A stretch of 59,830 nucleotides of DNA from an uncultured Gammaproteobacteria bacterium (GTDB taxonomy: Bacteria; Pseudomonadota; Gammaproteobacteria; Xanthomonadales; SZUA-38). Under the pieces are notes generated by a model. The model saw only the letters and a program-made list of their open reading frames with translations. It did not search any database and was not told the DNA's origin. The position numbers were made by a program, and so were the translations under genes. The DNA lies in contig CAZLJY010000004.1 of assembly GCA_964559945.1 (NCBI GenBank), forward strand, positions 1 through 59,830. Reading direction: 5' to 3'. This document shows positions 1 through 37,556 of this stretch, one piece after another. Numbering within the stretch: position 1 is the first letter of the stretch; every line of letters starts with the position of its first letter.

Positions 1-1974
1 GCGAGGCGCGCCACGCTGATCGAATTCAGTGCAAAACGCCCGCTCTGCAGCACCCATCGCCGGACTACCAGGTAACGGCACATGGGTCAGAGTATCAATG
101 ACCGGGTTGGCACCGCCGTTGTTTTGTAAAGGGCCAAGGAGGGGATCGCCGGTGACCATATTGGAGGCGCCATCTGCACAACTGCCATCGGAGATCAGGT
201 TGTTGGCATGGCGGTTAAACACCGGATTGTTGCTCGTTGCGCAATCGCCGCCTGCATTGACGCCAACAATAGTATTGGATATGCCCACTGAACCGCCGGA
301 CAAGGAGACGCCTCCGCCACTGCTAGCACTGTTGCCAACCCAGGTGTTATTGACGACAAAAATATAGCCGGAATAGTTTTCGATACCACCGCCGTTAACC
401 GATGCGGTATTGCCCGACAAGGTGACGTTGTAGAGCCCCATCCCCCCCTGGTTGTTTTCGATTCCGCCACCGCCTAGGGCAGTATTGTTAGATAGCGTGA
501 CGTCAAACAAACTCGTCTGGCTAGTGTTGTAAATAGCACCGCCATAGCCCACTGCACTACTATTGGTAATGAGGCTGTTGTACAGCAGCGCTATGCCAGA
601 ATTATGAATAGCGCCACCGTCACGACTGGCGGAGTTTGAAGAAAGCCCACTATCTCGTAGGCGCAAGGTCTCGGTATTGTAAATCGCACCACCGAACGTG
701 GCGCTATTACCACGAAAACGATAGCTGGAAAAAACGCCGTCAATGGATACTTCACCCCCGTTAAATATGGCGCCGCCCTGCTCAGTGGCAGTGTTGGAAG
801 AAACACTAGGGTTACCGCCGACAATGGGATCGAGTATTAAATCGAATTCTCCCAAGTTATAAAGGCCTCCCCCCCTTTGCGCCGTATTGGCGGAAAGCCT
901 TAAGTCCTGCAGGGAGATCGTCGCGTCAACGGCGTTGTAAATACCGCCGCCCATTTGGCCAGCAACGTTAGAAGACAGCGAGGGTCCACCACCAACCGTC
1001 ACGACACTGCCGTTAACGTTAAAAATTCCGCCGCCGTTAATGCTAGCAGTGTTTTCGTCTACACCGCCGTCGAGTCTCAGCTCCTCTTGGAAAGTAACCA
1101 CCCCCCCGTTATTGAAAATACCGCCGCCATTGGCTCCACTTTCGTTAGAGTCAACATTGACCAGGCCAATGGTGACATTGCCTTGCTGATTGTAGATACC
1201 GCCGCCATTACCCATTGCGGTGTTTTCAGAGACTTCTCCCCGCGCCGAGAAGTTGGTCGATTGGGTTTGTAGGATGACAGAACCGTAGTTGTTGAAGATC
1301 CCCCCACCTGCCGTGGCTTGGTTGTCTACTACCTGAGACCTAAGCAGTAATGCCTCGCCATAAAAATTCAGGACCCCGCCACCGTTTCCCCCGCTGGTAT
1401 TGCCGCTGATCAGGCTATCCACAGCGGTCAAGTTTCCGACGTTGTATAGGCCACCGCCACCGGGTACCGAATGGCTTTGCGTGATGGTGACACCCGTCAA
1501 TGTCAACGCATTACTTCGGAAATTGGCGATGGCACCGCCGAAGCCATCGGAATAACCATTGGTCAGCGTTAGGTCATTGAACGACACCGCTTCGGTTGTC
1601 TGAATGTTGGCGATTCGCGAAATATTTTGACCGGAGATCCTTGTCGGTCCTTGGAGAGTTACCTCCGAATTGATGATCAGCTCACCGTTTTCCAACAGAT
1701 GCAGTGAAGTGGGCAAATCAAACTCGATGGTGTCCGCCCCCTGGCCGGAGACACAACCACCGGTAGCGGTATCAGTATTAGCAGCAGTGATTGCGTCGCG
1801 CAGCGTACATACCGCTGAAGATGAGTTGTCTAGGCGGGTTTCTACCACAATCGTTGCTGCGAAAACCGAGGTGTTAATGAGTGCTTGGGCAACCGCCAAC
1901 GCGAGAGCTCGCCGATGAATCGGACCTCTTGCGCTTGCCGTTCCTTTTCTTTTCACTTTGGCCTTCGGTGACAT
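1..1974 (-). CDS. CSLREA-domain secreted/surface protein with GGAI/GGGI repeats and a choice-of-anchor-Q-like region (3' end outside the window)
   Basis: Translated by hand; absent from the ORF track because it runs off the left edge. ATG at 1974 gives MSPKAKVK...RRALALAVAQALINTSVFAATIVVETRLDNSSSAVCTLRDAITAANTD (CSLREA-like). Segments checked are in frame: GGGIFNNYG near 1290, NGGANPVIDTLTHVPLPGSP near 61-120, FDQRGAPR at the edge. Not every codon was checked for stops. Confidence 0.88.
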   Translation of the reverse strand, partial: MSPKAKVKRKGTASARGPIHRRALALAVAQALINTSVFAATIVVETRLDNSSSAVCTLRDAITAANTDTATGGCVSGQGADTIEFDLPTSLHLLENGELIINSEVTLQGPTRISGQNISRIANIQTTEAVSFNDLTLTNGYSDGFGGAIANFRSNALTLTGVTITQSHSVPGGGGLYNVGNLTAVDSLISGNTSGGNGGGVLNFYGEALLLRSQVVDNQATAGGGIFNNYGSVILQTQSTNFSARGEVSENTAMGNGGGIYNQQGNVTIGLVNVDSNESGANGGGIFNNGGVVTFQEELRLDGGVDENTASINGGGIFNVNGSVVTVGGGPSLSSNVAGQMGGGIYNAVDATISLQDLRLSANTAQRGGGLYNLGEFDLILDPIVGGNPSVSSNTATEQGGAIFNGGEVSIDGVFSSYRFRGNSATFGGAIYNTETLRLRDSGLSSNSASRDGGAIHNSGIALLYNSLITNSSAVGYGGAIYNTSQTSLFDVTLSNNTALGGGGIENNQGGMGLYNVTLSGNTASVNGGGIENYSGYIFVVNNTWVGNSASSGGGVSLSGGSVGISNTIVGVNAGGDCATSNNPVFNRHANNLISDGSCADGASNMVTGDPLLGPLQNNGGANPVIDTLTHVPLPGSPAMGAAERAFCTEFDQRGAPR

Positions 1975-2131
1975 CCCATTGCACTCCTATTGATACGGAC
2001 AACTCTGCGAAAGCGCGGCACAATTGTGTTGTGCAACGGATTTGAAACCCGGCGAAAAGGCTCTGGAAAGGTGCCAATTACCGACCCATCAACGCAGACC
2101 TATCGGGACCTAGCGCCCCATATTTTCTGTC

Positions 2132-2170
2132 TTGACCCCACGTACAGAAAAACGGGTGAAATTGGCTCAA
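2132..2170 (-). promoter_or_regulatory. Putative ECF-sigma promoter, copy 1 (TTGAGCC-N10-GTTTTTCTGTACGTGGG), upstream of the CSLREA gene
   Basis: Matches copy 2 at 2693-2731 at 32 of 39 nt with no gaps; same orientation as the downstream gene. Confidence 0.7.
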
Positions 2171-2261
2171 CAAAAAAAATCTTTTGCCCCGTCACCACTG
2201 CAAAACTGTTGCCAGCTCACGCTGCATGGGGCGTTGGCTTGACGGCGACTGTGATCGTGAC

Positions 2262-2290
2262 AAAAAAAGGCGCACCCCTGTGCGCCTTTT
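2262..2290. terminator. Intrinsic terminator after urcA (bidirectional shape)
   Basis: AAAAGGCGCAC-CCCT-GTGCGCCTTTT, 11-bp stem with A/T runs on both sides. Confidence 0.8.
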
Positions 2291-2311
2291 CTCTATCGGA
2301 TCCGTTGATGC

Positions 2312-2665
2312 CTAATGGGCAGTAAAAACCTGATATTCAAGATGGCGCCCTGTATCGGCGTAATGTGTCAGGTGACGGTTATCAATCTGATCAACAAATC
2401 GGGCAAATAACTCGCGATTGCAGGTCTCACGTTCGCTAACGGAGTTAATGACCGAATGCCAACAGAACCGCCGCGTCCTGGTTTTTAGCTTTTTAAACAA
2501 TTTTTCAACACCGGCCGGGCTGTCTAATAACGATTTTTCATACGTCACACGCAGGACGCCCTCTTGAGCCATGGCGGTGGTTAAACCCGTTAAAGCGAAG
2601 AGTAAAAACCCTGCCACTAGGATACTTTTGGTTTGAACTGCTGCGTTCTGATATTGCTTATGCAT
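2312..2665 (-). CDS. UrcA-family secreted small protein
   Basis: Signal peptide, then VTYEKSLLDSPAGVEKLFKKLKTRTRRFC...C...FVDQI, the UrcA-type pattern with two Cys. Confidence 0.75.
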   Translation of the reverse strand: MHKQYQNAAVQTKSILVAGFLLFALTGLTTAMAQEGVLRVTYEKSLLDSPAGVEKLFKKLKTRTRRFCWHSVINSVSERETCNRELFARFVDQIDNRHLTHYADTGRHLEYQVFTAH

Positions 2666-2692
2666 AGAGTGATCTCGCTAATTTTTGTTGCG

Positions 2693-2731
2693 TTGGTCCC
2701 ACATACAGAAAAACCGTTGCAATGGGCTCAA
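2693..2731 (-). promoter_or_regulatory. Putative ECF-sigma promoter, copy 2 (TTGAGCC-N10-GTTTTTCTGTATGTGGG), upstream of urcA
   Basis: Ends 27 nt before the urcA ATG; near-identical to 2132-2170. Confidence 0.72.
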
Positions 2732-2809
2732 TCCCAATGATCTTTTTAGCGATGTCGTGAGAAAACCGATGGTTGTCCAGGGAATACGGTTTGCTGGTAT
2801 TGAAAATAC

Positions 2810-5374
2810 TTAGCGACTTTCCGCGGCCAAATTTGCCGCATCAATGGCGGATTGAATATCCGCAGCATTTTGCGTCTGTCCTAATTGTTGATAGATCGAA
2901 AGCAAGTCAGCGGCTGACTTTTGGGTTTCGATATGTTGATCGCCAAGTCTGTCGAGCTGGGTTTCGTAGGCTGATAGCATGAGCTGCTCAGCTTCCACCG
3001 GGTCAGAATCACGGATACAGTTGGCTAAGTTTCGTTGTCCTTTAGCCACCGAATTATGGGTAGGCAACGCGGCCAGCACTATTTCTAGACCTTCGCGAAG
3101 TTCTGATTGGGCTTTTGAACAACTGCCCTGGCGTATATAAAACGCCCCTAGGCCCAGCTTAGTAATACCAATATTAGGATGGCCGGGCCTTAACAGGTTG
3201 GCAAAAATCTCCAAGCTCCGTAGACGGCGTTTTTCCGATAGATCTATGTCGCCGTTGGCCTCAGCAAGCTGGGCTAAGCCGGACAATGCGAAGCCGACTT
3301 CCCGGTGGTCGGGGCCGAGAATCTCTTCGGCAATCCTCAACGCTCGCTGGTAACTTTCCTCAGCCTCAATGGTATTTCCCATAGCCCTTTGGGTCGCGCC
3401 TAAGTCCTGCAAAACCTGTGAGGTAAAGGCCTCCAACTCGCCATTGATTTTTAGCTGTTGGGTCACAGCTTGCTCAACCAATGCCAGTGATTCATCGTAC
3501 TCACCCCGCTGGCGCAGTACATTGCCTAATCCAATCAGAGACATCGTGTGTTGGTCGGCCGACTCCGGGTGATGGCTAGCAAAAACCGGCAAAACCTGGC
3601 GATAGGTTTCCTCCGCAAGATCCAAGTCGCCAGCGTTGGTTGCCAATCTGGCGATCCGGAAACGGCTGTTGGCCAGGCCAAGGGGGTCATCAATGTGGAG
3701 GCGAATGGCGATGGACTGCTGACCCAATTCAACGGCCTTGTCCTGCTGTCCCTGGGCTGCCGCGATTCGCGATAGATTGATCAGCACATCAGCATAATCT
3801 GCACTTTGGGCACCCGCTAATTGTTCACGCAATAGCAACTCCTTGCCCCATAGTTCTTCCGCCAAGGCGTAGTTTCCTAACACGCTATAGATACTGGCGA
3901 AGGTATCGTTAAGATCCGCTTGCAACTGCGGTTGATCACCTAACTCCTGTTGAGCGCGCTGCGCTCCTGAACTCAATAAGTCCATGGCCGTCAGAGTCTC
4001 ACCCTTTGAATTATTGGGGTGGGCCTGTTGAAACACAGTGACCAAAAAGTCTTTGGTGGCATCTGCCCGTGCCGTTTGTTCCACCAATGCCTGGTTTTGT
4101 TGTTTCTGCTTCCAAGCAAACCAAGCGACCCCCCCGCTCAAAGCAAGCACCAACGCCGCGATGACTGCCGAAAGCGCTACGGGCACTCGATGACGGCGAA
4201 TAAACCGCGAGGCCGAGTAGGTAAAGGTATCGGGGCGCGCCATCACCGGCCGATGGGTCAAGTGACGTTGAATATCTTCAGCAAGGGCGCCTGCGGTTGC
4301 ATAGCGTTCGCCAGTTTGGCGTTTGAGGGACTTGGCTAAGATGTTTTCCAAATCGCCGCTTAATCGGTCAACCAGGCTTTTCGCATTCAACTGGCGTTGG
4401 CGGGCAATCGTCTCCAGGTGGTCATGGGAATCAGCACTGGAGAGCAGCTGGTTTAAGCGGCGACTGGCTAGGGTTGCGTCTTCTTCGCTGAGTACTCGCA
4501 AGTTCTTGGGAATGTTGTCATTGCTTAACTTGTGAGCATCAACTCCTGCCAGCAACCAATAGAGCAACATGCCCAAACCGTACACATCGGTTCTTGTTGA
4601 TACCGGCTGACCCAATAGCTGCTCCGGCGCGGCAAACTTTGGTGTAACTGGAAGGTGTGTGGTCAGCGGCTGAGGATTTTCCTCGTTTGATTCCCCAACG
4701 ATTTTGGCGACGCCAAAATCCAGCAACTTCACTTGCCCAGATTCGGCCACCAGGATGTTTGCTGGCTTAATGTCTCGATGTAAGGTTAGATTCTGGTGAG
4801 CATGTTCAACTGCACTACAGACCTGCAAGAACAATCCCAGCCGCGCCTCAATGGATAAACAATTTTGATCAGCGTATTCATCAATCGGCCGGCCTTCGAT
4901 GTGCTCCATGACAAAGTAAGGCGTGCCATTGTCGCTCATGCCGCCATCGAACAATTGGCAAATGTTCGGGTGGTCAAGCCCAGCGAGGATTTGCCGTTCG
5001 CGCAAGAATAACGCGGCTGACTGGGGTTCTGCTAACGCCGCTGGTAACACTTTGATGGCGACCTCTTGGTCGAATTGGCCATCACTTCGTGAAGCCAGAT
5101 AAACCTCACCCATACCGCCGCGGCCCAGCAATCGGGTGGGTTGGTAATCGCCAATTTTCTCAGGCAACACGGGCTCTTCTTCCTCCAGCAACGTGTTGAA
5201 GCGGTCACCCAAACCTTCAAAGTAACTGCCAGCGGCATTCTGTTGGGACAACAAATTGTCGATCATTCGTCGATCTTCGTCAGCGCCGGCCAGTGCTCCA
5301 TCCAAGTAGCGCTCACGTTCTGGCGAATCTAGCTGCAAGGCCTGCAGATAGATTTCTTCAAGTTCAGGCGTCAC
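2810..5374 (-). CDS. Membrane-anchored Hanks-type Ser/Thr kinase with C-terminal TPR repeats
   Basis: LGRGGMGEVY, VAIK, HRDIKPAN, DFG and APEQ motifs; one hydrophobic segment (VALSAVIAALVLALSGGVAWFAW); helical TPR repeats. GTG start. Confidence 0.93.
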   Translation of the reverse strand: MTPELEEIYLQALQLDSPERERYLDGALAGADEDRRMIDNLLSQQNAAGSYFEGLGDRFNTLLEEEEPVLPEKIGDYQPTRLLGRGGMGEVYLASRSDGQFDQEVAIKVLPAALAEPQSAALFLRERQILAGLDHPNICQLFDGGMSDNGTPYFVMEHIEGRPIDEYADQNCLSIEARLGLFLQVCSAVEHAHQNLTLHRDIKPANILVAESGQVKLLDFGVAKIVGESNEENPQPLTTHLPVTPKFAAPEQLLGQPVSTRTDVYGLGMLLYWLLAGVDAHKLSNDNIPKNLRVLSEEDATLASRRLNQLLSSADSHDHLETIARQRQLNAKSLVDRLSGDLENILAKSLKRQTGERYATAGALAEDIQRHLTHRPVMARPDTFTYSASRFIRRHRVPVALSAVIAALVLALSGGVAWFAWKQKQQNQALVEQTARADATKDFLVTVFQQAHPNNSKGETLTAMDLLSSGAQRAQQELGDQPQLQADLNDTFASIYSVLGNYALAEELWGKELLLREQLAGAQSADYADVLINLSRIAAAQGQQDKAVELGQQSIAIRLHIDDPLGLANSRFRIARLATNAGDLDLAEETYRQVLPVFASHHPESADQHTMSLIGLGNVLRQRGEYDESLALVEQAVTQQLKINGELEAFTSQVLQDLGATQRAMGNTIEAEESYQRALRIAEEILGPDHREVGFALSGLAQLAEANGDIDLSEKRRLRSLEIFANLLRPGHPNIGITKLGLGAFYIRQGSCSKAQSELREGLEIVLAALPTHNSVAKGQRNLANCIRDSDPVEAEQLMLSAYETQLDRLGDQHIETQKSAADLLSIYQQLGQTQNAADIQSAIDAANLAAESR

Positions 5375-5398
5375 GGGCTTAACCTTTCATTCACGTTA

Positions 5399-5965
5399 CT
5401 ACTGCGGCTTGTCATGCTGCTCACCCAGCGTTTGATATAGCGCCGCCAGTGCGAGGGTCCAGTCGCGCTTCACCGTGGCCAGGGAAATTTCTAGTGCCTC
5501 GGCAATTTGCTCGTTGCCCAAACCACCAAAAACGCGGCACTCCACCACTCGACTGCGCCGCGGGTGCTGGACCTCTAGTTTTTCCAACGCCTCGTGCAGT
5601 TCTAATAGTTCCAGCAAGGTTGCACCTTTGCCGGACAGTTCTTTCGGGAGGGTTAGGTTGTCGGCGTTTCCGCCGCGCTTGGCGGCGCCGCTGTGTTCAG
5701 CATAGTTAACCAACACTTGACGCATCGCCTTGGCGGCTGTGGCAAAGAAGTGTTTTTTATTGCGCCAGCTGGGCGGCGACCGGTCGGCCAACTTCAAATA
5801 GGTTTCGTGAATCAGCGCGGTGGTATTGAGGGTATCGTTTCCCCGCCAGCGTCGTCGATGAGCCCGCGCAATGACCTTAAGCTCATCATAAATGGACTGA
5901 AACAAAGCCTGCTGATCTGCGGGATCAATTCCAGCAACCGGCCCATCGTTTGTCTCACTCATCAT
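5399..5965 (-). CDS. ECF sigma factor, TIGR02999-like (kinase-associated)
   Basis: IYDELKVIA...DTLNTTALIHETYLKL...FFATAAKAMRQVLV...AAKRGG...VECRVFGGL...IAEALEISLATVKRDW. ATG at 5965 follows a GGGAGAG SD. Confidence 0.92.
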   Translation of the reverse strand: MMSETNDGPVAGIDPADQQALFQSIYDELKVIARAHRRRWRGNDTLNTTALIHETYLKLADRSPPSWRNKKHFFATAAKAMRQVLVNYAEHSGAAKRGGNADNLTLPKELSGKGATLLELLELHEALEKLEVQHPRRSRVVECRVFGGLGNEQIAEALEISLATVKRDWTLALAALYQTLGEQHDKPQ

Positions 5966-6181
5966 GCGCTCTCCCTGCAAAATAAAACAGCGGTGCTCGC
6001 AGCTTTCTGCCAGGTCAGGGATTTGCTGGCTTAAGCACTGAGCCTTCGAGCTTAGCAGGTCTATCCTGCCTCGCTCTATCAGAACTTATTTAGTAATACA
6101 CAAGTTAACTTACGGGATCTAGGAAAGCGGAGGGATTGGATCGGGTGTGGCGAAAACTGCAGGGATCTGGAGACCGGTGAA

Positions 6182-6221: not shown

Positions 6222-8000
6222 TCAGGGTCTAACTAAGGTGAACGTGTAATTACCACTACCTGAATAGGAATAGACTCGCCAGTAATAAAATCCAGCGGCA
6301 CCGTTATAGGTGATCGATTCATTGGAGCTTGACGACTGGGAGACTCGGACGCGGGTCCAACTGCCAGTCCAGCGATATAGCGCCAAATCAAAGTCAGCGT
6401 TGGAGGGCCCAACCAGGGTACCAATATGCTGACCTGCTCCGCTTTGATAATAGGTTCCGCCAGGCTGTACATCACGATCGTTGCGACCTGACAGGCTGCC
6501 CGTGTAGGTCTCGCCGCCGCCCCCCGGCGGTGTGGTGTCGGGATCCAGCCATTCCTCAACCTGGTCAAAATAACCAGCTAGGGCGCCATCAACCGTTGCG
6601 TTTCGACTGTCACACACGTCAGAAGGGTTGGGGCCGCAAGCACCCGACAACTGCCCGACCACCTGCCCCGATGCGTTTAACACCGGTGAACCGCTAGATC
6701 CCCCTTCGGTGGCTCCAATGGCGTCAGTGGAATAAATCCAGTTGCCTCTGGGCCAGGAACCACAGGTGCCAATACTGGTGCTCACATCGTGGCGGGAATA
6801 GGCCTGGGGAGCGCCTTTAGGATGACTGATTCGAAACAAATCTTGGCCATTGCTGTTAGCAACCGATGAAGCTGTCCAACCCAGAAACGTGGTGCCTGAG
6901 GGCGCATTTTGATTGAGGCGCAGCAGGGTGTAATCACCGGTGGCGCTGGTGCTTAGCAAGGTTGCGCCGTTAGTTCGAGGAACCGCCCCATTCGGGTTAT
7001 AACAACTCCCGCCGCAGCCGGCGCCAAACTGCCAGAAGGCTTCCATACTGTTGGCTTCCGCGTTGCTGCTAATGCAGTGGTTGGCAGTGAGAAAATACGG
7101 CGTTTGGGTGGAACTGTCGGTGTCATTAATTAATCCACCGCTGCAAATAAACGAACTACCACCGCTCACAAATTGAATATGCGCCACACCATCTTTGGTG
7201 TTTTCCATTTGCGCCCAATCAGAATTGTTATAGCAACCGCCATTTTCCACACAGCTGTCGTTGAAGCTGCAAAAGGCCTTTTCTGCCGATGGGCTTAACG
7301 CGCTCGCCACCTGAAAACGAGGTCCGATATGGGCGACCCGGGCAATGGTGAAGTTGAGGAGGTTTGCGCTCTGAGATTTTACGGAATCGTCGAAGGACAA
7401 ACGCACAAAGGCTTCATCACCGGTAATCGTATGAGTCCAAAAATCCCCAGATTTATTCAATCCATCCAAGGTGTAAGGGCCGTACGCCTCGCCGGTTAAA
7501 TTGTAGATGGCCAGGGATGCGCCTTCCGGCAGATGAACATTGGTGAGGTTCAATCGAAGTGCGGTGGCTCCCGGTGATCGAACACCGGCTGTCCAAGCAC
7601 TTTGCGACCCTTCAATTTTCACCACGCCGCCTGAAATAGCTTGTCCGGATTTCAATGCCGTTCGAGATAACGATCCTAGGTCTACCTTATGGCTTAGGTC
7701 GCGAACCTTGCCCGACTCCAACGCCCTGGCTGCGCTACTGCGCTCATCACACGCCACCACACACTGCGCTTCCCCTATGTCGATTTTGTCCTGGTGAGAC
7801 AGAGAGATCTGCAGCATCTCTGTGGCCCCAATATCTGGGTGAGTGGCCAATAGTTGATCAAATAGCTCGGCCTGCAAGGCCTTTTGCTGGTCCTTGTTTT
7901 CCAGCGCGGGTTCAGTGAAGGTTTGTGGCGCCGAAATGTCGACCTGAGCCACGGAAACGCTACTGACTAGTGCAGCGGCAACGAAAAACGATCGTTTCAT
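6222..8000 (-). CDS. Secreted trypsin-like serine protease (lysyl endopeptidase / Achromobacter protease I-like) with C-terminal PPC-like domain
   Basis: Signal peptide MKRSFFVAAALVSSVSVAQ; triad motifs FLTANHC, GDYTLL, TEGGSSGSP; tail ADFDLALYRW...GFYYWRVYSYSGSGNYT. Confidence 0.85.
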   Translation of the reverse strand: MKRSFFVAAALVSSVSVAQVDISAPQTFTEPALENKDQQKALQAELFDQLLATHPDIGATEMLQISLSHQDKIDIGEAQCVVACDERSSAARALESGKVRDLSHKVDLGSLSRTALKSGQAISGGVVKIEGSQSAWTAGVRSPGATALRLNLTNVHLPEGASLAIYNLTGEAYGPYTLDGLNKSGDFWTHTITGDEAFVRLSFDDSVKSQSANLLNFTIARVAHIGPRFQVASALSPSAEKAFCSFNDSCVENGGCYNNSDWAQMENTKDGVAHIQFVSGGSSFICSGGLINDTDSSTQTPYFLTANHCISSNAEANSMEAFWQFGAGCGGSCYNPNGAVPRTNGATLLSTSATGDYTLLRLNQNAPSGTTFLGWTASSVANSNGQDLFRISHPKGAPQAYSRHDVSTSIGTCGSWPRGNWIYSTDAIGATEGGSSGSPVLNASGQVVGQLSGACGPNPSDVCDSRNATVDGALAGYFDQVEEWLDPDTTPPGGGGETYTGSLSGRNDRDVQPGGTYYQSGAGQHIGTLVGPSNADFDLALYRWTGSWTRVRVSQSSSSNESITYNGAAGFYYWRVYSYSGSGNYTFTLVRP

Positions 8001-8244
8001 ACAATTCCCCAATCAAGTGGGGCGGCGCCCGGCAGGACGCAGCACCCGTGAGCGCGTCGTCCTTGAGCTGATGTGTCCTTGAGGGCCAGGCTTTGGACCT
8101 GACTTGACGGAAACTATACGGATTAAATCACGGTAAACAGCAAAATATGTCACATACTTCGGACATTTTATCTGTTAACCGGGTTCGAGGTTCTGACAAA
8201 GCAGACCTCACAATAGCCAATCGGGCACTGCCTTTACCGGCCAA

Positions 8245-10302
8245 TTAACGGTCTGGATGGCGCTCCACCAGGGTCAAGATGTCATACAAGGCAACAGCCT
8301 CGGACTCCTGGTTGGTGACCTCCACGGCCCAGCGCACCACCCCTTGGGGAACGTCATCGGGCTCGCGCTGTTCTTTCTTGATTTTTTGTTTAACGGTGAT
8401 GGTCACCTGGATGGTGTCACCAATGCCTACCGGCTCAATAAAACGCAGGTTATCCAGCCCGTAGTTAGCCAGTACCGGGCCGGGTGCTGGATCCACAAAC
8501 ATCCCCGCCGCCGCGGATATCACAAAATAGCCATGGGCCACTCGCCGTCCAAAAATGGGCGATGCCTTCGCTGCTGCATCGTCGAAATGAGCATAAAAAT
8601 GGTCACCGGACAGACAGCCGAAATTGACAATGTCCGCTTCGGTAATGGTGCGTCGGTGGGTAGTTAAAGATTCACCAATTTCCAGTTCATCAAAATATTT
8701 GCGGAAGGGGTGTACCGGATCATTCTTAACCGCCGCACCGGGTACGTATTCATTGGTGATGTGCATCAAGGTGGTGGGTGACCCCTGCAACGCCGTGCGA
8801 CGCAAATAGTGTTTAACCGCCCGCGCACCTCCTAACTCCTCGCCCCCCCCGGCACGCCCAGGGCCACCATGGACCAGCGATGGCATCGGTGAACCGTGGC
8901 CGGTAGACGCCGCGGCACAGTCTCGATTGATGATCAGCATCCTTCCATGATGGGCTGCGGTGCCCAGAATTAGTTCTCGCGCCTCAGCGTTATCAAAGGT
9001 AAAAACCGAACCCACTAACGACCCTCTTCCCCGGCGGGCAATCTCCACCGCTTCCGCATTGCCCTGGTAGGGCATCAAGGTACTGACCGGACCAAAGGGC
9101 TCGATGGCGTGGGGGCCTGCCATGGTTGCCAATGGGCTTTCACAGGCCAGCAAGGTGGCGGGGAAAAAGGCGCCAGCTTTAGCATCAGCCTCGGTGACTG
9201 AAAACTCTCGGTGGCCGCCATGGACTACCTCACAACCCTCAGCGGTTAACGCTTCCACCGCGGCCCACACGTCAGCACGCTGATCATTACCCACCAGGGG
9301 ACCCATTCTCACGCCCTTCACTGAGGGATCACCCAGCACCGTTTTGTCCAATCGAGCAGCGATCGCCTGCTGCACAGCGTCCTGATACGCCGACGGCACA
9401 ATCGCTCGGCGAATTGCGGTACATTTCTGCCCGGCTTTCACCGTCATTTCTCTGACCACCTCTTTGACGAAGAGATCAAATTCCTGGGTACCCGGCTCCG
9501 CTGACTGACCCAGGATGCAGCAATTAAGGGAGTCGGCTTCCATGTTAAATGGGATAGACCGGGCAAGAATATTGGGGTGTGCGCGCAGTTTCACCCCGGT
9601 ACTGGCCGAACCGGTAAAGGTGACCACATCTTGCTCTTCCAGGTGATCCAACAGGTCGCCGGTACTGCCGCTGATGAGTTGAATCGCCCCTTCCGGGAAC
9701 AGCTTTGACGCAACGATCTCCTGCACCATGGCTTCGGTCAGATAGGAGGTTACGGTGGCCGGCTTCACCACCACTGGCATTCCAGCGGCCAGTGAGGGGG
9801 CAATTTTTTCTAGCATGCCCCAACAAGGAAAATTGAAGGCGTTAATGTGCACTGCCACCCCTTCCCGAGGACTGAGCATATGGCGGCCAACAAAACTCCC
9901 GTCCTGAGAAAGTGGCTCAACCCCACCTTCAACCATCACCGTATCGTTGGGAAATTCTCGGCGCACAATGGAGGAGTAGGCAAACAAGGTACCGATTCCA
10001 CCCTCAATATCCACCCAACCATCGGCTCGCGTTGCGCCTGTCCAGGCCGACACCTCATAGAATTTCTCTTTCTTCTCTAGCAGATGTTTGGCCAATGCTT
10101 TCAGCGCCAATGCTCGGTCGTGAAAGGTCATCTTGCGCAAATTTGCGCCGCCGGTGTCCCGAGCAAAACGCACAACTTCGGCAAAGTCGATGCCGGCTGA
10201 CGATACCTGGGCAACGGCAGCACCGGTCACCGCATTGTGAACAGTAACGCCCTCTTCATCGCTGCGGTGCCAGCCACCGTTAACGTAACTTGCAAGCTTC
10301 AT
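8245..10302 (-). CDS. paaZ: Bifunctional oxepin-CoA hydrolase / aldehyde dehydrogenase
   Basis: ALDH domain ([20 protein letters not shown]) plus C-terminal MaoC domain ([15 protein letters not shown]); lies in a paa cluster. Confidence 0.95.
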
Positions 10303-10314
10303 GGCATAGATTCC

Positions 10315-10908
10315 TTAAGTCGGTTTGAATTGATACCGAGAGATATCCATTCGGGGGCGATCAGGCTCAGCCTCAGATAATGGCTGTACTTCAGCCAGGT
10401 CGGTAAGACACAGCTTCGCCAGTCCCTGGTATTCAGCGGTACCCGCAGATTTCCATTGGCGCTCTTGCGGGGAAACTTCACGTAACACTTTGGCTGGGGT
10501 ACCCACAGCCAAATGCCCAGCAGGCAGCTTGAACTTTGCCGGTACAAAGGCGCAGGCACCGACAAACGCACCAGGACCAATTTCTGCCTCGTCCATCACC
10601 ACCGCATTCATCCCGACCAACGCGTCTTCACCAACCAAGCAACCGTGCAGTACCGCGCCATGGCCAATATGCCCGTCGGTTTCGATGATCACATCTTGAC
10701 CCGGAAACGCGTGCATCACGCAGGTGTCTTGCACATTGCAGCCCGGACCAAGAACCACTCGACCAAAATCGCCGCGCAAACTGGCACAGGGTCCAACGTA
10801 GGCACCTTCAGCTACCAATACATCACCAATCAGCACGGCTGTGGGATGCACAAACGCCGAGGGGTGAACCACCGGCGTTAAGCCATTAAAGCGATAGACC
10901 GGCATCAA
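10315..10908 (-). CDS. paaY: PaaY-like hexapeptide-repeat (gamma carbonic anhydrase fold) protein
   Basis: [37 protein letters not shown]; adjacent to paaZ. Confidence 0.88.
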
Positions 10909-13840: not shown

Positions 13841-14806
13841 ATGATCATGAACAGTAATTTTCCGGGCTCCACAGAGCAATTGACCACCGAATTTGATGCG
13901 CGGGTCGCCGACGATGTGAAGATTGAACCCAAGGACTGGATGCCGGCGGCCTATCGCAAGACGCTAATCCGCCAAATCAGTCAGCATGCCCATTCCGAGA
14001 TCATCGGAATGCAGCCCGAAGGAAACTGGATTACCCGCGCTCCCTCCTTAAGGCGCAAGGCGGTGTTGATGGCCAAAGTCCAAGACGAAGCAGGACACGG
14101 TCTTTACCTGTATAGCGCCGCCGAAACCCTAGGCATGAGTCGCGATCAAATGATTGCCGACCTGCAAAGCGGCAAAGCCAAATACTCCAGTATCTTTAAC
14201 TACCCTACCCTGACCTGGGCCGACATTGGCGCCGTTGGTTGGCTGGTTGATGGCGCTGCAATCATTAACCAAGTGCCGATCTGTCGTTGCTCCTATGGCC
14301 CCTATGCCCGAGGCATGGTGCGAATTTGTAAAGAAGAGAGTTTTCATCAGCGCCAGGGATTTGAAATTATGCTGACCCTGGCCCGCGGCAACCAAGCCCA
14401 ACGGGAAATGGCCCAGGATGCATTGAATCGATGGTGGTGGCCCTCCCTAATGATGTTTGGGCCACCGGATGCTGAGTCCGCCAATACCGCTCAGTCCATG
14501 GCTTGGCGAATCAAACGCCATACCAACGATGAACTCAGACAGAAGTTTGTCGACCAGACCGTACCCCAGGCGGACTATCTTGGCCTCAAGGTGCCCGACA
14601 AAGATCTGCGCTGGAATAAGCAAACCGGTGCCTATGAGTTCGGCGAAATCGACTGGGATGAGTTTTGGCGAGTGGTTAAGGGTAATGGCATGTGTAACCG
14701 AGACCGGATTGCGAAACACGTGGCCGCCCATGAGGACGGCGCCTGGGTGCGGGAAGCGGCCAAGGCTCACGCTAAACGACAGGCTACGCGCCAGGAGGCG
14801 GCGTGA
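13841..14806 (+). CDS. paaA: Phenylacetyl-CoA epoxidase subunit A
   Basis: [46 protein letters not shown]. Confidence 0.97.
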
Positions 14807-15093
14807 TGACGGATACCACCCAACCGCTGTTTGAAATTTTTATCCGCTCTCGCCGCGGCCTTGATCATAAACATGTAGGCAGCCTGCACGCTCAGGACCA
14901 CCAAGCCGCCTTAGGCTACGCGCGCGACGTGTATACCCGGCGCAGTGAAGGGGTCAGCATCTGGGTGGTGAAATCCGAAGATATTGTGGCCAGCCAAGAG
15001 GACGAAGCATCCGCGTTCTACGATCCTAGCGACGATAAAGTGTATCGGCACGCCTCCTTCTACGATGTGCCGGACGAAGTGAAACACATGTAA
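14803..15093 (+). CDS. paaB: Phenylacetyl-CoA epoxidase subunit B
   Basis: [21 protein letters not shown]...[17 protein letters not shown]...DKVYRH. Confidence 0.96.
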
Positions 15094-15857
15094 TGGATAA
15101 CCCAATCAATACTGACGTCTTTGAATATGCACTGCGCCTGGGTGATGACGCCCTGACCCTGGGGCACCGGTTATCGGAATGGACCGCCAAAGCGCCCTTT
15201 CTTGAGGAAGACATTGCCCTTGGCAATATTGCCTTAGATTATGTTGGCCGGGCGAGATTGCTGCTGACTTACGCCGGCGAGGTGGAAGGTGAGGGACGAG
15301 ACGAAGATCAGCTGGCCTATTTGCGCGACACTCGCCAATACCGCAACTTGCTAATTTGCGAGCTGCCCATTGGCAACTTCGCTGACACCATGGCGCGGCA
15401 ATTGTTGATTGATGCCTTCGAAGTCCCCTACTTCCATGCTTTGTCAGAAAGTACCGACGCCACGATCGCGGGCATTGCGGGCAAAGCCGTCAAAGAAGCG
15501 AAGTATCATCTGCGCCATTCCGCAGGCTGGGTTGTGCGCCTGGGTGATGGCACGAACGAGTCGCGGGCCAAAATCACCCAAGCCTTTAACGACGTCTGGG
15601 GCTATGCCGCTGAGATGTTTGTGACCGACCCTCTAGAAGCCCGGTTAGTTGACGCAGGTATTGCCATTGAACGCGAACCGTTGCAGGCGCTTTGGCAGGG
15701 CGAGGTCGAATCAGTATTGAGTAAAGCCACACTGGAATTGCCGCAGGCGAGCTGGCAAGTGGACGGCGGTCGCCGGGGCGAACACACCGAACACCTAGGC
15801 CACTTATTGGCCCAACTGCAATTTATGCAACGGGCTTACCCGGGACTGCAATGGTAG
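15093..15857 (+). CDS. paaC: Phenylacetyl-CoA epoxidase subunit C
   Basis: LRLGDDALTLGHRLSEW, EEDIALGNIALD, KEAKYH, QRAYPGLQW. Confidence 0.96.
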   Translation: MDNPINTDVFEYALRLGDDALTLGHRLSEWTAKAPFLEEDIALGNIALDYVGRARLLLTYAGEVEGEGRDEDQLAYLRDTRQYRNLLICELPIGNFADTMARQLLIDAFEVPYFHALSESTDATIAGIAGKAVKEAKYHLRHSAGWVVRLGDGTNESRAKITQAFNDVWGYAAEMFVTDPLEARLVDAGIAIEREPLQALWQGEVESVLSKATLELPQASWQVDGGRRGEHTEHLGHLLAQLQFMQRAYPGLQW

Positions 15858-16348
15858 CGGGCATGGATGAACATTTTTCCGACCTCAAAGCCAAACTCGA
15901 TGCTTTGTGTGACCCGGAAATTCCGGTGTTAACCCTCAATGACCTGGGCGTTATTCGCGATGTTCAACGGTCTGCTGGCCAAGTGGTGGTCACCATGACC
16001 CCTACCTACAGTGGCTGTCCGGCCATGGATGCCATGACCCAGGCTGTACGGGAGGTACTGAATGCCAGCCCCTTTGAGGGCCAGGTGAAAACGGTCTTCA
16101 ATCCACCCTGGACAACCGATTGGCTAACTGACTCGGGCCGCAAAAAGCTCAAGCAATATGGCATTGCACCGCCTGTGGGCAGGGCAGCGGAGGAACCGTC
16201 AAACGGCCATGATGAGCGCCAAGTTGCCTGTCCACGCTGCGATAGCCTAAATACTCGGGTGGTCAGTCAGTTTGGCTCAACCGCGTGTAAAGCGCTGCAT
16301 CAGTGTCAGACCTGCCTCGAACCTTTTGATTACTTTAAATGTCATTAA
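15851..16348 (+). CDS. paaD: Phenylacetyl-CoA epoxidase subunit D
   Basis: DPEIPVLT..DLGVIR, TPTYSGCPAM, WTTDW, CPRC, FGSTACKA, CLEPFDYFKCH. Confidence 0.95.
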   Translation: MVAGMDEHFSDLKAKLDALCDPEIPVLTLNDLGVIRDVQRSAGQVVVTMTPTYSGCPAMDAMTQAVREVLNASPFEGQVKTVFNPPWTTDWLTDSGRKKLKQYGIAPPVGRAAEEPSNGHDERQVACPRCDSLNTRVVSQFGSTACKALHQCQTCLEPFDYFKCH

Positions 16349-17412
16349 ACACACAGTTTTATCCATTAACCGTTGCCGCCGTCACCCCGGACACCGACGA
16401 CTCAGTGTGCGTCACTTTCCGCTTGCCTGACGAACTAAAAACGATCTTTGCGTTTACCCAAGGCCAACACCTAACACTGCGCAAGTCACTGGACGGCGAA
16501 GAGCTGCGCCGCAACTACTCTCTTTGCTCTGCGGTTGGTGGAACACTGACAGTGGCGATTCGCCGAGTGGCTGACGGCCGATTTTCCAGCTGGGCCAACG
16601 AGCAGCTGAAACCCGGCGACATTCTCGACGTCATGCCTCCCCAAGGACGGTTCTTTACCGAGCTCAGCGAGCAGCAACGCAAGACCTACCTGGCTCTGGC
16701 CGCCGGCAGTGGAATCACCCCTATTGCCTCGCTTATCGCCACCACCTTGGCCACCGAGCCTGAAAGCCAATTCACCCTGGTTTACGGCAATCGACGCACT
16801 GACACCATCATGCTGCGCCAGCAATTGGAACATCTGAAAAACCGTTACCCAGACCGCCTTCAGTTAATCCATATACTCAGTCGGGAAGCCCGGGATGTTG
16901 ATTTACTCAATGGGCGTATCGACCAGAAAAAGCTGGCGGAGCTGGCGGAAAAACTGCTGGACCTAAACCACACCGACGAGGTGTTCCTGTGCGGCCCCGA
17001 GGCGATGATTTTAGATCTACGCCAATGGTTACAATCCAACGGTGGGCTGGCCCAAGAACAAATCCACATAGAACTGTTTGGGACGGAAAATGCCAAAACC
17101 CGAACGGAAATACCGCTGGATGCAGGCCCAACTCGACAGGTCAGCATTATTTCTGATCGACGTCGTATTGAGTTAGAAATTCCCTCCCAGGGCCAATCCA
17201 TCCTTGACGCCGCTTTGGCCGCTGGCGCCGACCTGCCCTTCGCCTGCAAAGGCGGGGTTTGCTGTACCTGCCGAGCCAAAGTGATTGAAGGCGAAGTCAG
17301 CATGGACGTCAATTACGCCTTGGAACCTAATGAGATCGAAGCGGGGTTTGTGCTTACCTGCCAAGCGCATCCCATCACCGACAAGGTTGTGGTGGACTTC
17401 GACCATATCTAA
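16339..17412 (+). CDS. paaE: Phenylacetyl-CoA epoxidase reductase subunit (FAD/NAD + 2Fe-2S)
   Basis: RRNYSLCS, AAGSGITP, YGNR, FLCGP, CKGGVCCTC...CQ. Confidence 0.95.
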   Translation: MSLNTQFYPLTVAAVTPDTDDSVCVTFRLPDELKTIFAFTQGQHLTLRKSLDGEELRRNYSLCSAVGGTLTVAIRRVADGRFSSWANEQLKPGDILDVMPPQGRFFTELSEQQRKTYLALAAGSGITPIASLIATTLATEPESQFTLVYGNRRTDTIMLRQQLEHLKNRYPDRLQLIHILSREARDVDLLNGRIDQKKLAELAEKLLDLNHTDEVFLCGPEAMILDLRQWLQSNGGLAQEQIHIELFGTENAKTRTEIPLDAGPTRQVSIISDRRRIELEIPSQGQSILDAALAAGADLPFACKGGVCCTCRAKVIEGEVSMDVNYALEPNEIEAGFVLTCQAHPITDKVVVDFDHI

Positions 17413-17492
17413 GGGGCTCTGGCAATATCCGCTGCAGTTTAGGCGTTCGCTTAATACTCTACTGACGCGGTGGTGGATTTCGACTTCGGGAC

Positions 17493-17577
17493 GGCAATGA
17501 AGGGCATAGCCCCTGTGAAGGAATGGCTCCCTGCGGTCCGCTTTACTTCCGTCACAGGGGCTATGCCCTTCATTGCC
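17493..17577. repeat. Long inverted repeat (REP/MITE-like hairpin) between convergent paaE and DUF4112 genes
   Basis: GGCAATGAAGGGCATAGCCCCTGTGA (17493-17518) and its exact reverse complement (17552-17577): 26-bp perfect arms around a 33-nt loop. Confidence 0.85.
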
Positions 17578-17607
17578 TTCAATCGGGGTTTGTTTGTGTT
17601 TTTGTGT

Positions 17608-18087
17608 TTAGAATATTTTTGCTAGTAGCCAAAATGGCAAGATCATTAGTCCGAGCAAAAGCAAGGCTATGGCTACTATAGTGGCGGCGGCCAGCAGATT
17701 TTGCTGGGCGGACTGTGGGGCTTTTTCTTCCTGCTCGAGGGTATCTAACAGCAATCGGACATTTCTGTGATTGGCCTGAAAACCGATATCTAACAGGTCG
17801 CCGAAAATCGGCACGATTCCGACCAAGGCATCCACCAGAAGATTGGCGAACATCTTCGTGCGTACCGCCAGGGGAAGCTTGAACTGAAATGATTGGGCAA
17901 TGATGGCGCCACCTAGCAGCGCGCTGGCGCCGTCGCCGATGCCGGGAATCAGACCGATCAAACCATCCAAGCCGAATTTGATTTGGGTGCCCGGCACGTT
18001 CATCGAACGATCGAGTAGCCAAGCCAGTTTTCGAATCCGCTTAAGCGCGCGAGTTTGTGCTTGGGAGTATGGTGGCCTCTGGTTCAT
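17608..18087 (-). CDS. DUF4112-family membrane protein
   Basis: LAWLLDRSMNVPGTQIKFGLDGLIGLIPGIGD...GIVPIFGDLLDIGFQANHRNVRLL. Confidence 0.88.
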   Translation of the reverse strand: MNQRPPYSQAQTRALKRIRKLAWLLDRSMNVPGTQIKFGLDGLIGLIPGIGDGASALLGGAIIAQSFQFKLPLAVRTKMFANLLVDALVGIVPIFGDLLDIGFQANHRNVRLLLDTLEQEEKAPQSAQQNLLAAATIVAIALLLLGLMILPFWLLAKIF

Positions 18088-19721: not shown

Positions 19722-20552
19722 ATGAAGACCCTTTCACCTCAGCGCCCTGGCCCAGCCCAGTTTGGCGTCAACCTAAAACGCTGGCGAACCTTGCGCCGGC
19801 TGTCCCAGTTGGATTTAAGTTTGTCGGCGAACATCTCTCAGCGCCATTTGAGCTGGCTGGAAACCGGGCGCAGTCAACCCAGCCGAGCGATGGTGCTGCA
19901 GTTGGCCGAAGTGCTGGAGGTGCCACTGCGAAGTCGCAATGAGCTGCTCGACGCTGCCGGTTTCGCGAGCATGTATCCTCAACAAGGCCTTGAAGCCGAT
20001 GCGATGCAGGCCGTTCGCCAGGCGCTGCGACGCATGCTGGATCAACAGCTGCCCTACCCTGGTTTAGTGGTGGACCGAGAGTGGAACGTCATGATGACCA
20101 ATGCCTGCGCGGACGCTTTATTGCAGGCGGCAGGGGCCGATGATCTTTGGCAAGCCAGCGGCAGTGATGAGGGGCAAAGAAACCTCGCTCTGTTGACTTT
20201 GCATCCCGCTGGGCTGCGGCCCATGTTAGCCAATTGGAACCAAGCGGCCCACGCGTTTGTGCAGCGACTTCGAGCCGACCTAAGCCGCTCCCCCGATGAA
20301 TCCCTGCGACAAAAAACCGAAGCGCTAATCGCGTTGGCCGGGGATATTCCTGAGCCGGAACTACCAGGTGCGCCGCTGTTACCCATGTTGACTCTGGATT
20401 TACGCTTGGGCGATCAACTCCTGCGAATGTTCAGCGTGATCTCCACCTTTGGCACGCCCCAGGATGTGACCACCGACGAACTGCGTATCGAGACGTTTTT
20501 CCCCGTGGACGACACCAGCGAGCAGATTTTTCGAAGCTTTTGCCCAGACTAA
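19722..20552 (+). CDS. XRE-family HTH regulator with MmyB-like ligand-binding domain
   Basis: LKRWRTLRRLSQLDLS...SQRHLSWLETGRSQPSR; C-terminal FSVISTFGTPQDVTTDELRIETFFP. Confidence 0.9.
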   Translation: MKTLSPQRPGPAQFGVNLKRWRTLRRLSQLDLSLSANISQRHLSWLETGRSQPSRAMVLQLAEVLEVPLRSRNELLDAAGFASMYPQQGLEADAMQAVRQALRRMLDQQLPYPGLVVDREWNVMMTNACADALLQAAGADDLWQASGSDEGQRNLALLTLHPAGLRPMLANWNQAAHAFVQRLRADLSRSPDESLRQKTEALIALAGDIPEPELPGAPLLPMLTLDLRLGDQLLRMFSVISTFGTPQDVTTDELRIETFFPVDDTSEQIFRSFCPD

Positions 20553-36695: not shown

Positions 36696-37556
36696 ATGAG
36701 TCGACGACTAGGGCTGCTGGAACTCCACGTGGCAGTGCTGCTGTTTGGCCTGGCGGGGGTTGTGGGTAAAGCCATCAGCGCCGGCGCACTGGCCATAGTA
36801 CTGGGTCGATCGGCCATTGCCGCAGTGATCCTGGGCGCGGGTTTGGCCTTATGGGGCGGCGGCTTAAAACTCCCTAAGGGTGATCGAGCCGGCCTGCTGG
36901 GGACAGGCTTTTTGCTGGCCGCCCATTGGCTAGCGTTTTTCCATGCCATCGCCCTGTCTAGCGTTGCCATTGGGGTTGTTGGCTTTGCGACCTTTCCCCT
37001 GTTCGTAAGCTTGATGTCGCCAATGCTTGGCGGACCTCGCCCGCGCTGGATCGACGGGCTGACCGCGCTGGCTGTACTCCTAGGGCTCACCTTGGTCGCC
37101 TCACCAAGCAATACCGCCAGCCATGGAGGGGCACTGGCCCTCGCGGTATTTTCCGGATGGCTTTTTGCTGGCCTCACCCTGCTCAATCGGCGATTGGTGT
37201 TGCGCCAACCGTTTTTGCTGGTGTCGTTTTATCAGCATGCCGGCGCAGCAGTGGTTCTTGTTCCCGTTGCGGTGATCGCGGGGGCAACGGTGCAAGGGCA
37301 AGACTATTGGCTAATTGCGGTGCTAGGTATTGTATGCACCGCGTTCGCACAAACTCTGTTTGTGAAGTCCTTAGCGAAGATTGAAGCCCCACTGGCCAGC
37401 GTGGTGACGGGTCTTGAACCGATTTACGCCATCGCCCTGGCAGCTTGGCTGATCAATGAAATACCGTCAACGCTGACACTACTGGGCGCAGCCTTGGTTG
37501 TGGCCGCGGTATTTATCGCAAGCCTGGCGAGGCCTGCGTCACCGGCTCGGCGTTAG
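36696..37556 (+). CDS. DMT/EamA-family transporter
   Basis: About 10 TM segments in two repeats; GFATFPLFV, LEPIYAIALAAWLINE. Confidence 0.88.
   Translation: MSRRLGLLELHVAVLLFGLAGVVGKAISAGALAIVLGRSAIAAVILGAGLALWGGGLKLPKGDRAGLLGTGFLLAAHWLAFFHAIALSSVAIGVVGFATFPLFVSLMSPMLGGPRPRWIDGLTALAVLLGLTLVASPSNTASHGGALALAVFSGWLFAGLTLLNRRLVLRQPFLLVSFYQHAGAAVVLVPVAVIAGATVQGQDYWLIAVLGIVCTAFAQTLFVKSLAKIEAPLASVVTGLEPIYAIALAAWLINEIPSTLTLLGAALVVAAVFIASLARPASPARR

Follow-up and report, generated by a model that had tools for sequence, protein, structure and literature searches.

How might an extracytoplasmic function (ECF) sigma factor be controlled when a protein kinase is encoded beside it and no anti-sigma gene adjoins it, and which promoters would such a sigma factor read? 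Both questions are raised by a locus at one end (positions 1-5,965) of a stretch of 59,830 nucleotides (nt), contig CAZLJY010000004.1, positions 1-59,830; we refer to this whole analysed stretch as the window. The locus comprises genes for an ECF sigma factor, a receptor Hanks-type Ser/Thr kinase, a protein of the UrcA family and a surface protein with PMP repeats, all four on the minus strand in the list of open reading frames (ORFs). We consider it likely that the locus encodes a phosphorylation-activated ECF43 sigma factor together with its cognate receptor Hanks kinase, and that this sigma factor reads promoters of the form TGAGCC-N17-(T/G)GTA(T/C)G. The order of the genes, their domains, the conserved Thr residues, the motifs and topology of the kinase, its homology to PknS and the repeated occurrence of the motif near related sigma genes are what the analysis shows; the phosphorylation, the stimulus and the assignment of this sigma factor as the reader of the motif are the parts of the reading that we infer.

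The sigma factor and its partner kinase

The sigma gene (5399..5965, minus strand) lies in an ORF that is open from a TTG at 5980, and encodes a protein of 187-188 residues. Its likely start is the ATG at 5965/5962, which is preceded by a Shine-Dalgarno sequence (GGGAGAG); in the database the protein is 187 residues long. In Pfam and NCBIfam scans the product matched TIGR02999 (169.7 bits against a cutoff of 126.15), PF07638 (8.5e-38) and Sigma70_r4_2 (4.9e-07), in keeping with the family models for a two-domain (sigma2 + sigma4) ECF sigma factor. Judged by shared features, namely an uncharged TTA motif and an adjoining kinase gene, rather than by a classifier, TIGR02999 appears to be equivalent to the class ECF43. 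A search with the sigma factor gave 1824 homologues (E<=1e-10). Marine and sediment metagenomes are the source of the closest of these, with 74-75% identity, and the named ones belong mostly to the Woeseiaceae, the Lysobacterales/Xanthomonadales and the Steroidobacteraceae.

The kinase gene (2810..5374, minus strand; 854 residues, GTG start) follows after a spacer of 24 nt (5375..5398, minus strand), which extends from the sigma stop codon at 5399 to the kinase GTG at 5374 and holds a GAAAGG ribosome-binding site. The two genes are likely co-transcribed; a scan for consensus sigma-70 promoters returned no candidate promoter for this operon. The ORF list and domain scans revealed no anti-sigma gene in the spacer between the two genes or next to them, only spurious overlapping ORFs. 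Since there is no other credible ORF at these places, we conclude that there is no adjacent anti-sigma gene. A first-pass annotation of the locus, made from the sequence alone, had described a 24-nt gap with no anti-sigma gene in it, and the ORF coordinates bear this out exactly.

The kinase consists of a helical N-terminal extension (residues 1-75), a kinase domain (residues 77-361; Pkinase, 1.7e-42), a transmembrane (TM) helix (residues 397-421) and a TPR domain (residues ~470-854; TPR_12, 5.5e-40, in four stretches; both Pfam). Its Hanks motifs are complete, with GRGGMG at 84, VAIK at 105, HRDIKPAN at 199, DFG at 219 and APE at 249-251. The TM helix is the only hydrophobic segment and carries RFIRRHR on its N-terminal, inner side; the N-terminal 395 residues are therefore predicted to be cytoplasmic and the TPRs periplasmic, as the first-pass annotation had supposed in calling the TPRs extracytoplasmic. 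The best match of the kinase in the PDB was 9eed_A, a chain of 364 residues labelled 'Kinase domain protein' (E 2.1e-48, query residues 4-372), which ranked above PknB of M. tuberculosis and whose alignment spans the 75-residue N-extension. On account of its length, its rank and the alignment of the N-extension, we take 9eed_A to be the PknS 1-364 crystal structure of PMC13147305.

The N-extension itself is conserved in 12 partner kinases, with the pattern AExIFLxALEL...R..FLD.AC.G...LR.EV..LL, and its AlphaFold model has three helices, with a pLDDT of 83-88 over the first 40 residues. The idea that it forms an anti-sigma-like (Class I) docking domain was considered and found to be unsupported, as neither Pfam nor NCBIfam has a match in residues 1-75. 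A Foldseek search of the PDB with the N-extension reached E 0.12 at best, and every match listed was a protein kinase.

These features place the locus in a class that has already been described. In the literature (PMC13147305, PMC8999054, PMC8103513), ECF43 is a class of ~1000 members whose hallmark is a neighbouring Hanks-type kinase and no co-encoded anti-sigma factor; its DAED motif is replaced, with a consensus of QTTA and a Thr in 88% of members. The extracytoplasmic domains of ECF43-linked kinases were found in a survey to be of many different kinds. As judged by sequence, then, the locus is a case of the published ECF43 plus Hanks kinase class and no new kind of system: the mechanism, in which a Hanks kinase directly phosphorylates an ECF43 sigma factor, is established, and the locus adds a member and not a principle. 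The first-pass annotation had read the pair as a phospho-ECF system of the EcfP/PknT type. Homology supports that reading, but it does not stand as a fresh lead, since the published class includes a TPR kinase of like architecture, PknS, for which biochemical and structural work has been published.

Two members of the class invite closer comparison. EcfP of V. parahaemolyticus is phosphorylated by the neighbouring kinase PknT on the second Thr of its STTA motif; according to the summaries of Iyer et al. 2020 in PMC8999054 and PMC8103513, EcfP is intrinsically inactive, phosphorylation allows it to bind core RNA polymerase, and its regulon confers polymyxin resistance. The STTA of EcfP and the NTTA of the window sigma factor are equally fully uncharged, whereas no counterpart of the polymyxin-resistance regulon was seen at the window locus. 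EcfK of X. citri is directly phosphorylated by PknS on T51, with T106 as a second functional phosphosite, and PknS has an N-extension of 83 residues, followed by its kinase domain, a TM helix and TPRs in the periplasm (PMC13147305). The window locus resembles this system in having adjacent sigma and kinase genes without an anti-sigma gene, in the domain order of its kinase and in having a linker Thr. The EcfK phosphopeptide (AGLQATTELVHE / AGLQATTELVHEAWMR) aligns without gaps to region 2.2 of the window sigma factor, such that the TT of ...QATTELVHE falls on the TT of the window protein. The two differ in that EcfK retains an acidic residue after the Thr pair (ATTE) where the window sigma factor has NTTA, and in that EcfK controls a type VI secretion cluster while the predicted outputs in the window are UrcA-family and PMP-repeat proteins. 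Identity between EcfK/PknS and the window pair is modest; they are family relatives and not orthologues.

Region 2.2 of the window sigma factor reads NTTALIHE and has no acidic residue at the DAED positions; the codons of its N-T-T-A, the non-acidic replacement of DAED, lie at 5816..5827 (minus strand). Of the 120 best homologues, 117 have Thr at the position of T47 and 119 at that of T48 (187-residue numbering). By analogy with the register of the EcfP STTA motif, the second Thr of NTTA (T48, or T54 if counted from the TTG) is the predicted phospho-acceptor. A Thr within DTLNTTALIHE had been named as the target by the first-pass annotation; the peptide is present, and the published STTA/QTTA register points, by homology, to the second T of NTTA. 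A further candidate is T104 (codon at 5651..5653, minus strand), which lies in the sigma2-sigma4 linker within KRGGNADNLTLP. The T104 column holds Thr in 84 of the 120 homologues and is the sole Thr-rich column of the linker. T104 is probably the equivalent of EcfK T106, and hence a putative second phosphosite, because ECF43 has only one Thr-rich linker column (43% Thr); we infer the register in this loop.

The pairing of the two genes was surveyed over 92 related loci, made up of a first set of 12 and 80 further independent loci from JGI metagenomes (L019-L098). Among the 80 further loci, 56 have room for a kinase gene directly after the sigma gene, and 48 of these have one there; the pair was also found in 11 distinct loci of the earlier set. 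In contrast, homologues of the window's urcA-like, PMP-like and protease genes were found beside the sigma gene in none of the 92, and a conserved syntenic module of urcA, PMP gene, protease gene and sigma-kinase pair is thereby ruled out. Since the pair is kept while its neighbours vary from locus to locus, the conserved module is the sigma-kinase pair.

On some related contigs the system is not alone. One (L015) carries two ECF43-kinase pairs, at 7353-10630 and 14797-17887, and another (L006) has a second TPR kinase at 1-536. These extra copies indicate that there are several paralogous systems per genome, which raises a question of cross-talk.

Taken together, the comparisons suggest the following sequence of events. 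An envelope or periplasmic cue would act on the periplasmic TPR domain of the kinase, upon which the cytoplasmic kinase domain would autophosphorylate and then phosphorylate the sigma factor at the second Thr of N-T-T-A, and possibly also at the conserved linker Thr. The phosphate would restore a negative charge like that of DAED and so permit the sigma factor to bind core RNA polymerase, and the resulting holoenzyme would read TGAGCC-N17-(T/G)GTA(T/C)G promoters. Two such promoters in the window would drive the genes for the periplasmic UrcA-family protein and the PMP-repeat surface protein.

The EcfK system also supplies a caution. The EcfK T51A variant is still functional in X. citri, where extra linker phosphosites matter (PMC13147305), so that the Thr of region 2.2 may be neither the sole nor an essential switch. 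This counts against the scheme above and lends some weight to an account in which the sigma factor is controlled mainly by transcription, by proteolysis or by an anti-sigma factor encoded elsewhere, with the kinase acting on other substrates or having a modulating role. We regard this account as quite improbable, as it would have to accommodate a sigma factor that has lost every acidic residue at the DAED positions yet keeps its Thr pair nearly invariant, a kinase gene that adjoins the sigma gene in most related loci, and two family members, EcfP and EcfK, for which direct phosphorylation by the partner kinase has been shown.

A candidate promoter element around related sigma genes

We looked for the outputs of the proposed phosphorylation-activated sigma factor in the DNA around its gene. 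A 34-nt block, TTGAGCCnATTnCAnCnGTTTTTCTGTAnGTGGG, precedes urcA and also the PMP gene (2 copies in the window against 0 expected). The predicted urcA promoter (2702..2730, minus strand) reads TGAGCC-N17-TGTATG, with its -35 at 2725-2730 and its -10 at 2702-2707, and ends 36 nt before the ATG. The predicted promoter of the PMP gene (2141..2169, minus strand) reads TGAGCC-N17-TGTACG and implies a 5' untranslated region (UTR) of ~160 nt.

The same core recurs around related sigma genes with the same spacing. In the first 12 loci there were 4 exact matches to TGAGCC-N17-TGTA, on the sigma strand only, compared to 1 match over 31 other combinations of spacing and strand; when up to 1 mismatch was allowed, the N=17 form gave 12 matches versus 2.6 +/- 2.0. 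Likewise, the 80 further loci held 12 exact matches on the plus and 8 on the minus strand, every other spacing from 10 to 25 giving 0-4, and 48 (plus) and 28 (minus) matches with <=1 mismatch at N=17 versus about 8. The fuller form TGAGCC-N17-[TG]GTA[TC]G was matched 42 times around related sigma loci (38 non-redundant), whereas we calculate that ~0.3 would be expected by chance. Positions that had not been selected for were also conserved among 40 sites (G7 in 27, T9 in 32, T21 in 26 and C23 in 34), and T9, T21 and C23 are present in both window promoter sites. No match to a long, 32-nt form of the window motif was found in metagenome contigs; the flanks of the element are organism-specific, and the core alone is common to the related loci. 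In the loci L019-L098 there was, in addition, a secondary, smaller excess of TGAGCC-N21-TGTA (55 occurrences with <=1 mismatch), of which no more than 19 are accounted for as an echo of a GGTATGT -10.

The sites fall at three recurrent positions. Some stand ahead of the kinase gene, either within the 3' end of the sigma gene or in the spacer that follows it; others precede the sigma gene by about 100-150 nt; and a third group comes just past the kinase gene, before the next gene. Sites on the opposite strand stand ahead of divergent genes, and the next ORF begins 3-126 nt downstream of the sites. Besides the kinase and sigma genes themselves, the genes downstream of the motif in relatives encode Gcw_chp outer-membrane-type proteins, EamA-like membrane proteins and large lipoproteins with Big_5, cadherin/Big_9, NHL, RCC1 or Ig domains.

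Because the element consists of two blocks at a fixed spacing of 17 nt and travels with a single sigma clade, we read TGAGCC-N17-(T/G)GTA(T/C)G as the probable cognate -35/-10 promoter of this ECF43 clade. It follows from the recurrence of the motif around the 92 related sigma loci that urcA and the PMP gene very probably form a local regulon of the sigma factor. That these two genes are its outputs was already proposed by the first-pass annotation, and the predicted promoter common to both, which recurs around homologous sigma loci, gives that proposal a footing.

Several observations weigh against this reading. Relatives typically carry a feedback site in front of the kinase or sigma gene, yet no good one precedes either gene in the window, so that positive feedback at the level of transcription seems to be weak or lacking at this locus. 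What is found instead is a remnant with 2 mismatches, TGAGCA-N17-AGTA, at the sigma 3' end (5397-5423, minus strand), the position of good pre-kinase sites in many relatives; it may be a decayed feedback promoter. The related contigs on which a second ECF43-kinase pair or TPR kinase occurs are a further difficulty, as a paralogue could read the motif. Words sampled from the window were also absent from the metatranscriptomes of the same study.

Some of these points fit an alternative in which another factor, either a paralogous ECF43 sigma factor or a transcription factor, reads the element, and urcA and the PMP gene are not outputs of this sigma factor. The lack of a good site before the window's own sigma or kinase gene would be unsurprising under this alternative, as would the absence of any site with <=1 mismatch from the Woeseiaceae relatives L001 and L002. 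Even so, we judge it unlikely. Dozens of independent contigs show the motif accompanying homologues of this very sigma factor. It keeps to set places with respect to the sigma and kinase genes and strongly prefers the sigma strand, and its two blocks with a strict 17-nt spacer resemble an ECF -35/-10 promoter, unlike a dimeric operator.

What the locus adds is chiefly comparative, a well-supported predicted promoter consensus, TGAGCC-N17-(T/G)GTATG, for a marine/sediment ECF43 clade whose named members are mostly gammaproteobacterial. The consensus also gives a first picture of the targets of the clade, consisting of its own kinase or sigma gene, Gcw_chp and EamA-like envelope proteins and large surface lipoproteins, to which the window locus adds UrcA-family and PMP-repeat proteins. 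As a practical matter, it provides a concrete reporter with which to look for the signals that TPR receptor kinases respond to.

The candidate output proteins and the TPR domain

The UrcA-family gene (2312..2665, minus strand) lies 144 nt beyond the kinase gene and encodes a small secreted protein of 117 residues, which matched TIGR04433 with 31.7 bits against a cutoff of 25. It has a hydrophobic N-terminus (residues 14-33), a predicted signal peptide, and is predicted to be periplasmic; its Cys pair, C68 and C82, is invariant in the alignment. A full HMMER search of 1.84 billion representatives with this protein gave no more than 12 matches at E<=1e-3, and the best of these share 42-45% identity with it, which points to a rare, divergent branch of the UrcA family; a word search for UrcA homologues returned only the window's own protein. 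The gene is followed by an intrinsic terminator (2259..2297, minus strand) with a GGCGCAC/GTGCGCC stem and a run of U7 (-22.8 kcal/mol, z-score -4.0), and with its own predicted promoter and terminator urcA is a monocistronic unit.

The protein resembles UrcA of Caulobacter crescentus in being small and secreted and in having a signal peptide and a Cys pair (TIGR04433). The founding Caulobacter UrcA is a periplasmic protein with no assigned function. Whereas Caulobacter urcA, whose induction responds to metal or uranium, is induced via the UzcRS two-component system and an m_5/UzcR site, window urcA has a predicted ECF-type promoter. The locus offers the first regulatory lead for an UrcA-family protein outside Caulobacter.

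The PMP-repeat gene (1..1974, minus strand) starts 337 nt beyond urcA and is cut by the contig end, such that the N-terminal 658 residues of its product are present. The product matched the PMP-repeat models PF02415 (1.2e-13) and TIGR01376 and, at residues 610-658, the choice-of-anchor Q model NF041518 (5.9e-11); a match of its N-terminus to the CSLREA model TIGR04214 was weak, at 19.5 bits, below the cutoff of 25. The choice-of-anchor Q domain suggests a mode of anchoring other than an autotransporter beta-barrel, the C-terminus lying off the contig, and 'adhesin' is a guessed label that only the kind of repeat prompts. An Rfam scan of the 5' UTR of the PMP gene (~160 nt) gave no match, and its fold was not significant (z-score -1.05). 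As the first-pass annotation had noted, two secreted proteins are encoded downstream of the kinase on the same strand, the UrcA-like and PMP proteins both having N-terminal hydrophobic, signal-like segments.

TPRs usually bind proteins or peptides. A small protein that is predicted both to reside in the periplasm and to be induced by the system could therefore be imagined as the partner of the TPR domain, and feedback of UrcA on the TPRs was part of the first-pass annotation. Secreted UrcA would in that case bind the periplasmic TPR domain, as a ligand or a titrating inhibitor, and feed back on the kinase in place of the transcriptional feedback that most relatives have and the window locus does not. 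We give this idea very little credence, and the survey of related loci speaks against it: the 92 related ECF-kinase loci include none with an urcA-like gene nearby, and the outputs that share the promoter in relatives are unrelated to UrcA (Gcw_chp and EamA-like proteins and Ig/cadherin/NHL/RCC1 lipoproteins). The TPR sensor is thus kept in dozens of loci from which urcA is absent. UrcA-family genes elsewhere likewise lack the pair: the loci L017 and L018, which have enough flanking DNA, place these genes in unrelated contexts with no ECF-kinase pair; a Parvularculaceae locus is among the UrcA-family contexts that could be read, and it too has no such pair. We thus retain UrcA as a candidate output of the phosphorylation-activated sigma factor and not as its regulator.

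The closest retrievable relative of the UrcA-like protein is encoded on a contig of 1.4 kb (L016), too short for its context to be judged. This contig has a tandem urcA-like pair at 1-1370 and no promoter-core site with <=1 mismatch; the regions upstream of its two genes have a common element, TTTGGCCGGTTTA...CGTTTnTAT. The first gene of the pair is followed by a terminator whose stem, GGCGCAC/GTGCGCC, is identical to that of the window urcA terminator.

Other genes in the window and on related contigs

Upstream of the sigma gene, on the same strand, the window carries a gene for a secreted trypsin-like protease (6222-8012, minus strand), which has no upstream promoter-core site with <=2 mismatches. 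Secreted peptidase genes just upstream of the sigma gene were observed both here and on the related contig L014, which has two of the S8 type, at 2121-3683 and 6609-8180. No PP2C phosphatase was found among ten mid-sized ORFs scanned elsewhere in the window. The window also has an EamA-like gene (36696-37556, plus strand) with no core site nearby; EamA-like genes are a recurrent motif target in L035, L066 and L079. Finally, a gene for an MmyB-like regulator (HTH_31 + MLTR_LBD) lies at 19722-20552 (plus strand) in the window, at 10057-10869 in L010 and at 19159-19959 in L011. In all three it is 4-14 kb from the ECF-kinase pair, which may reflect residual synteny or coincidence.

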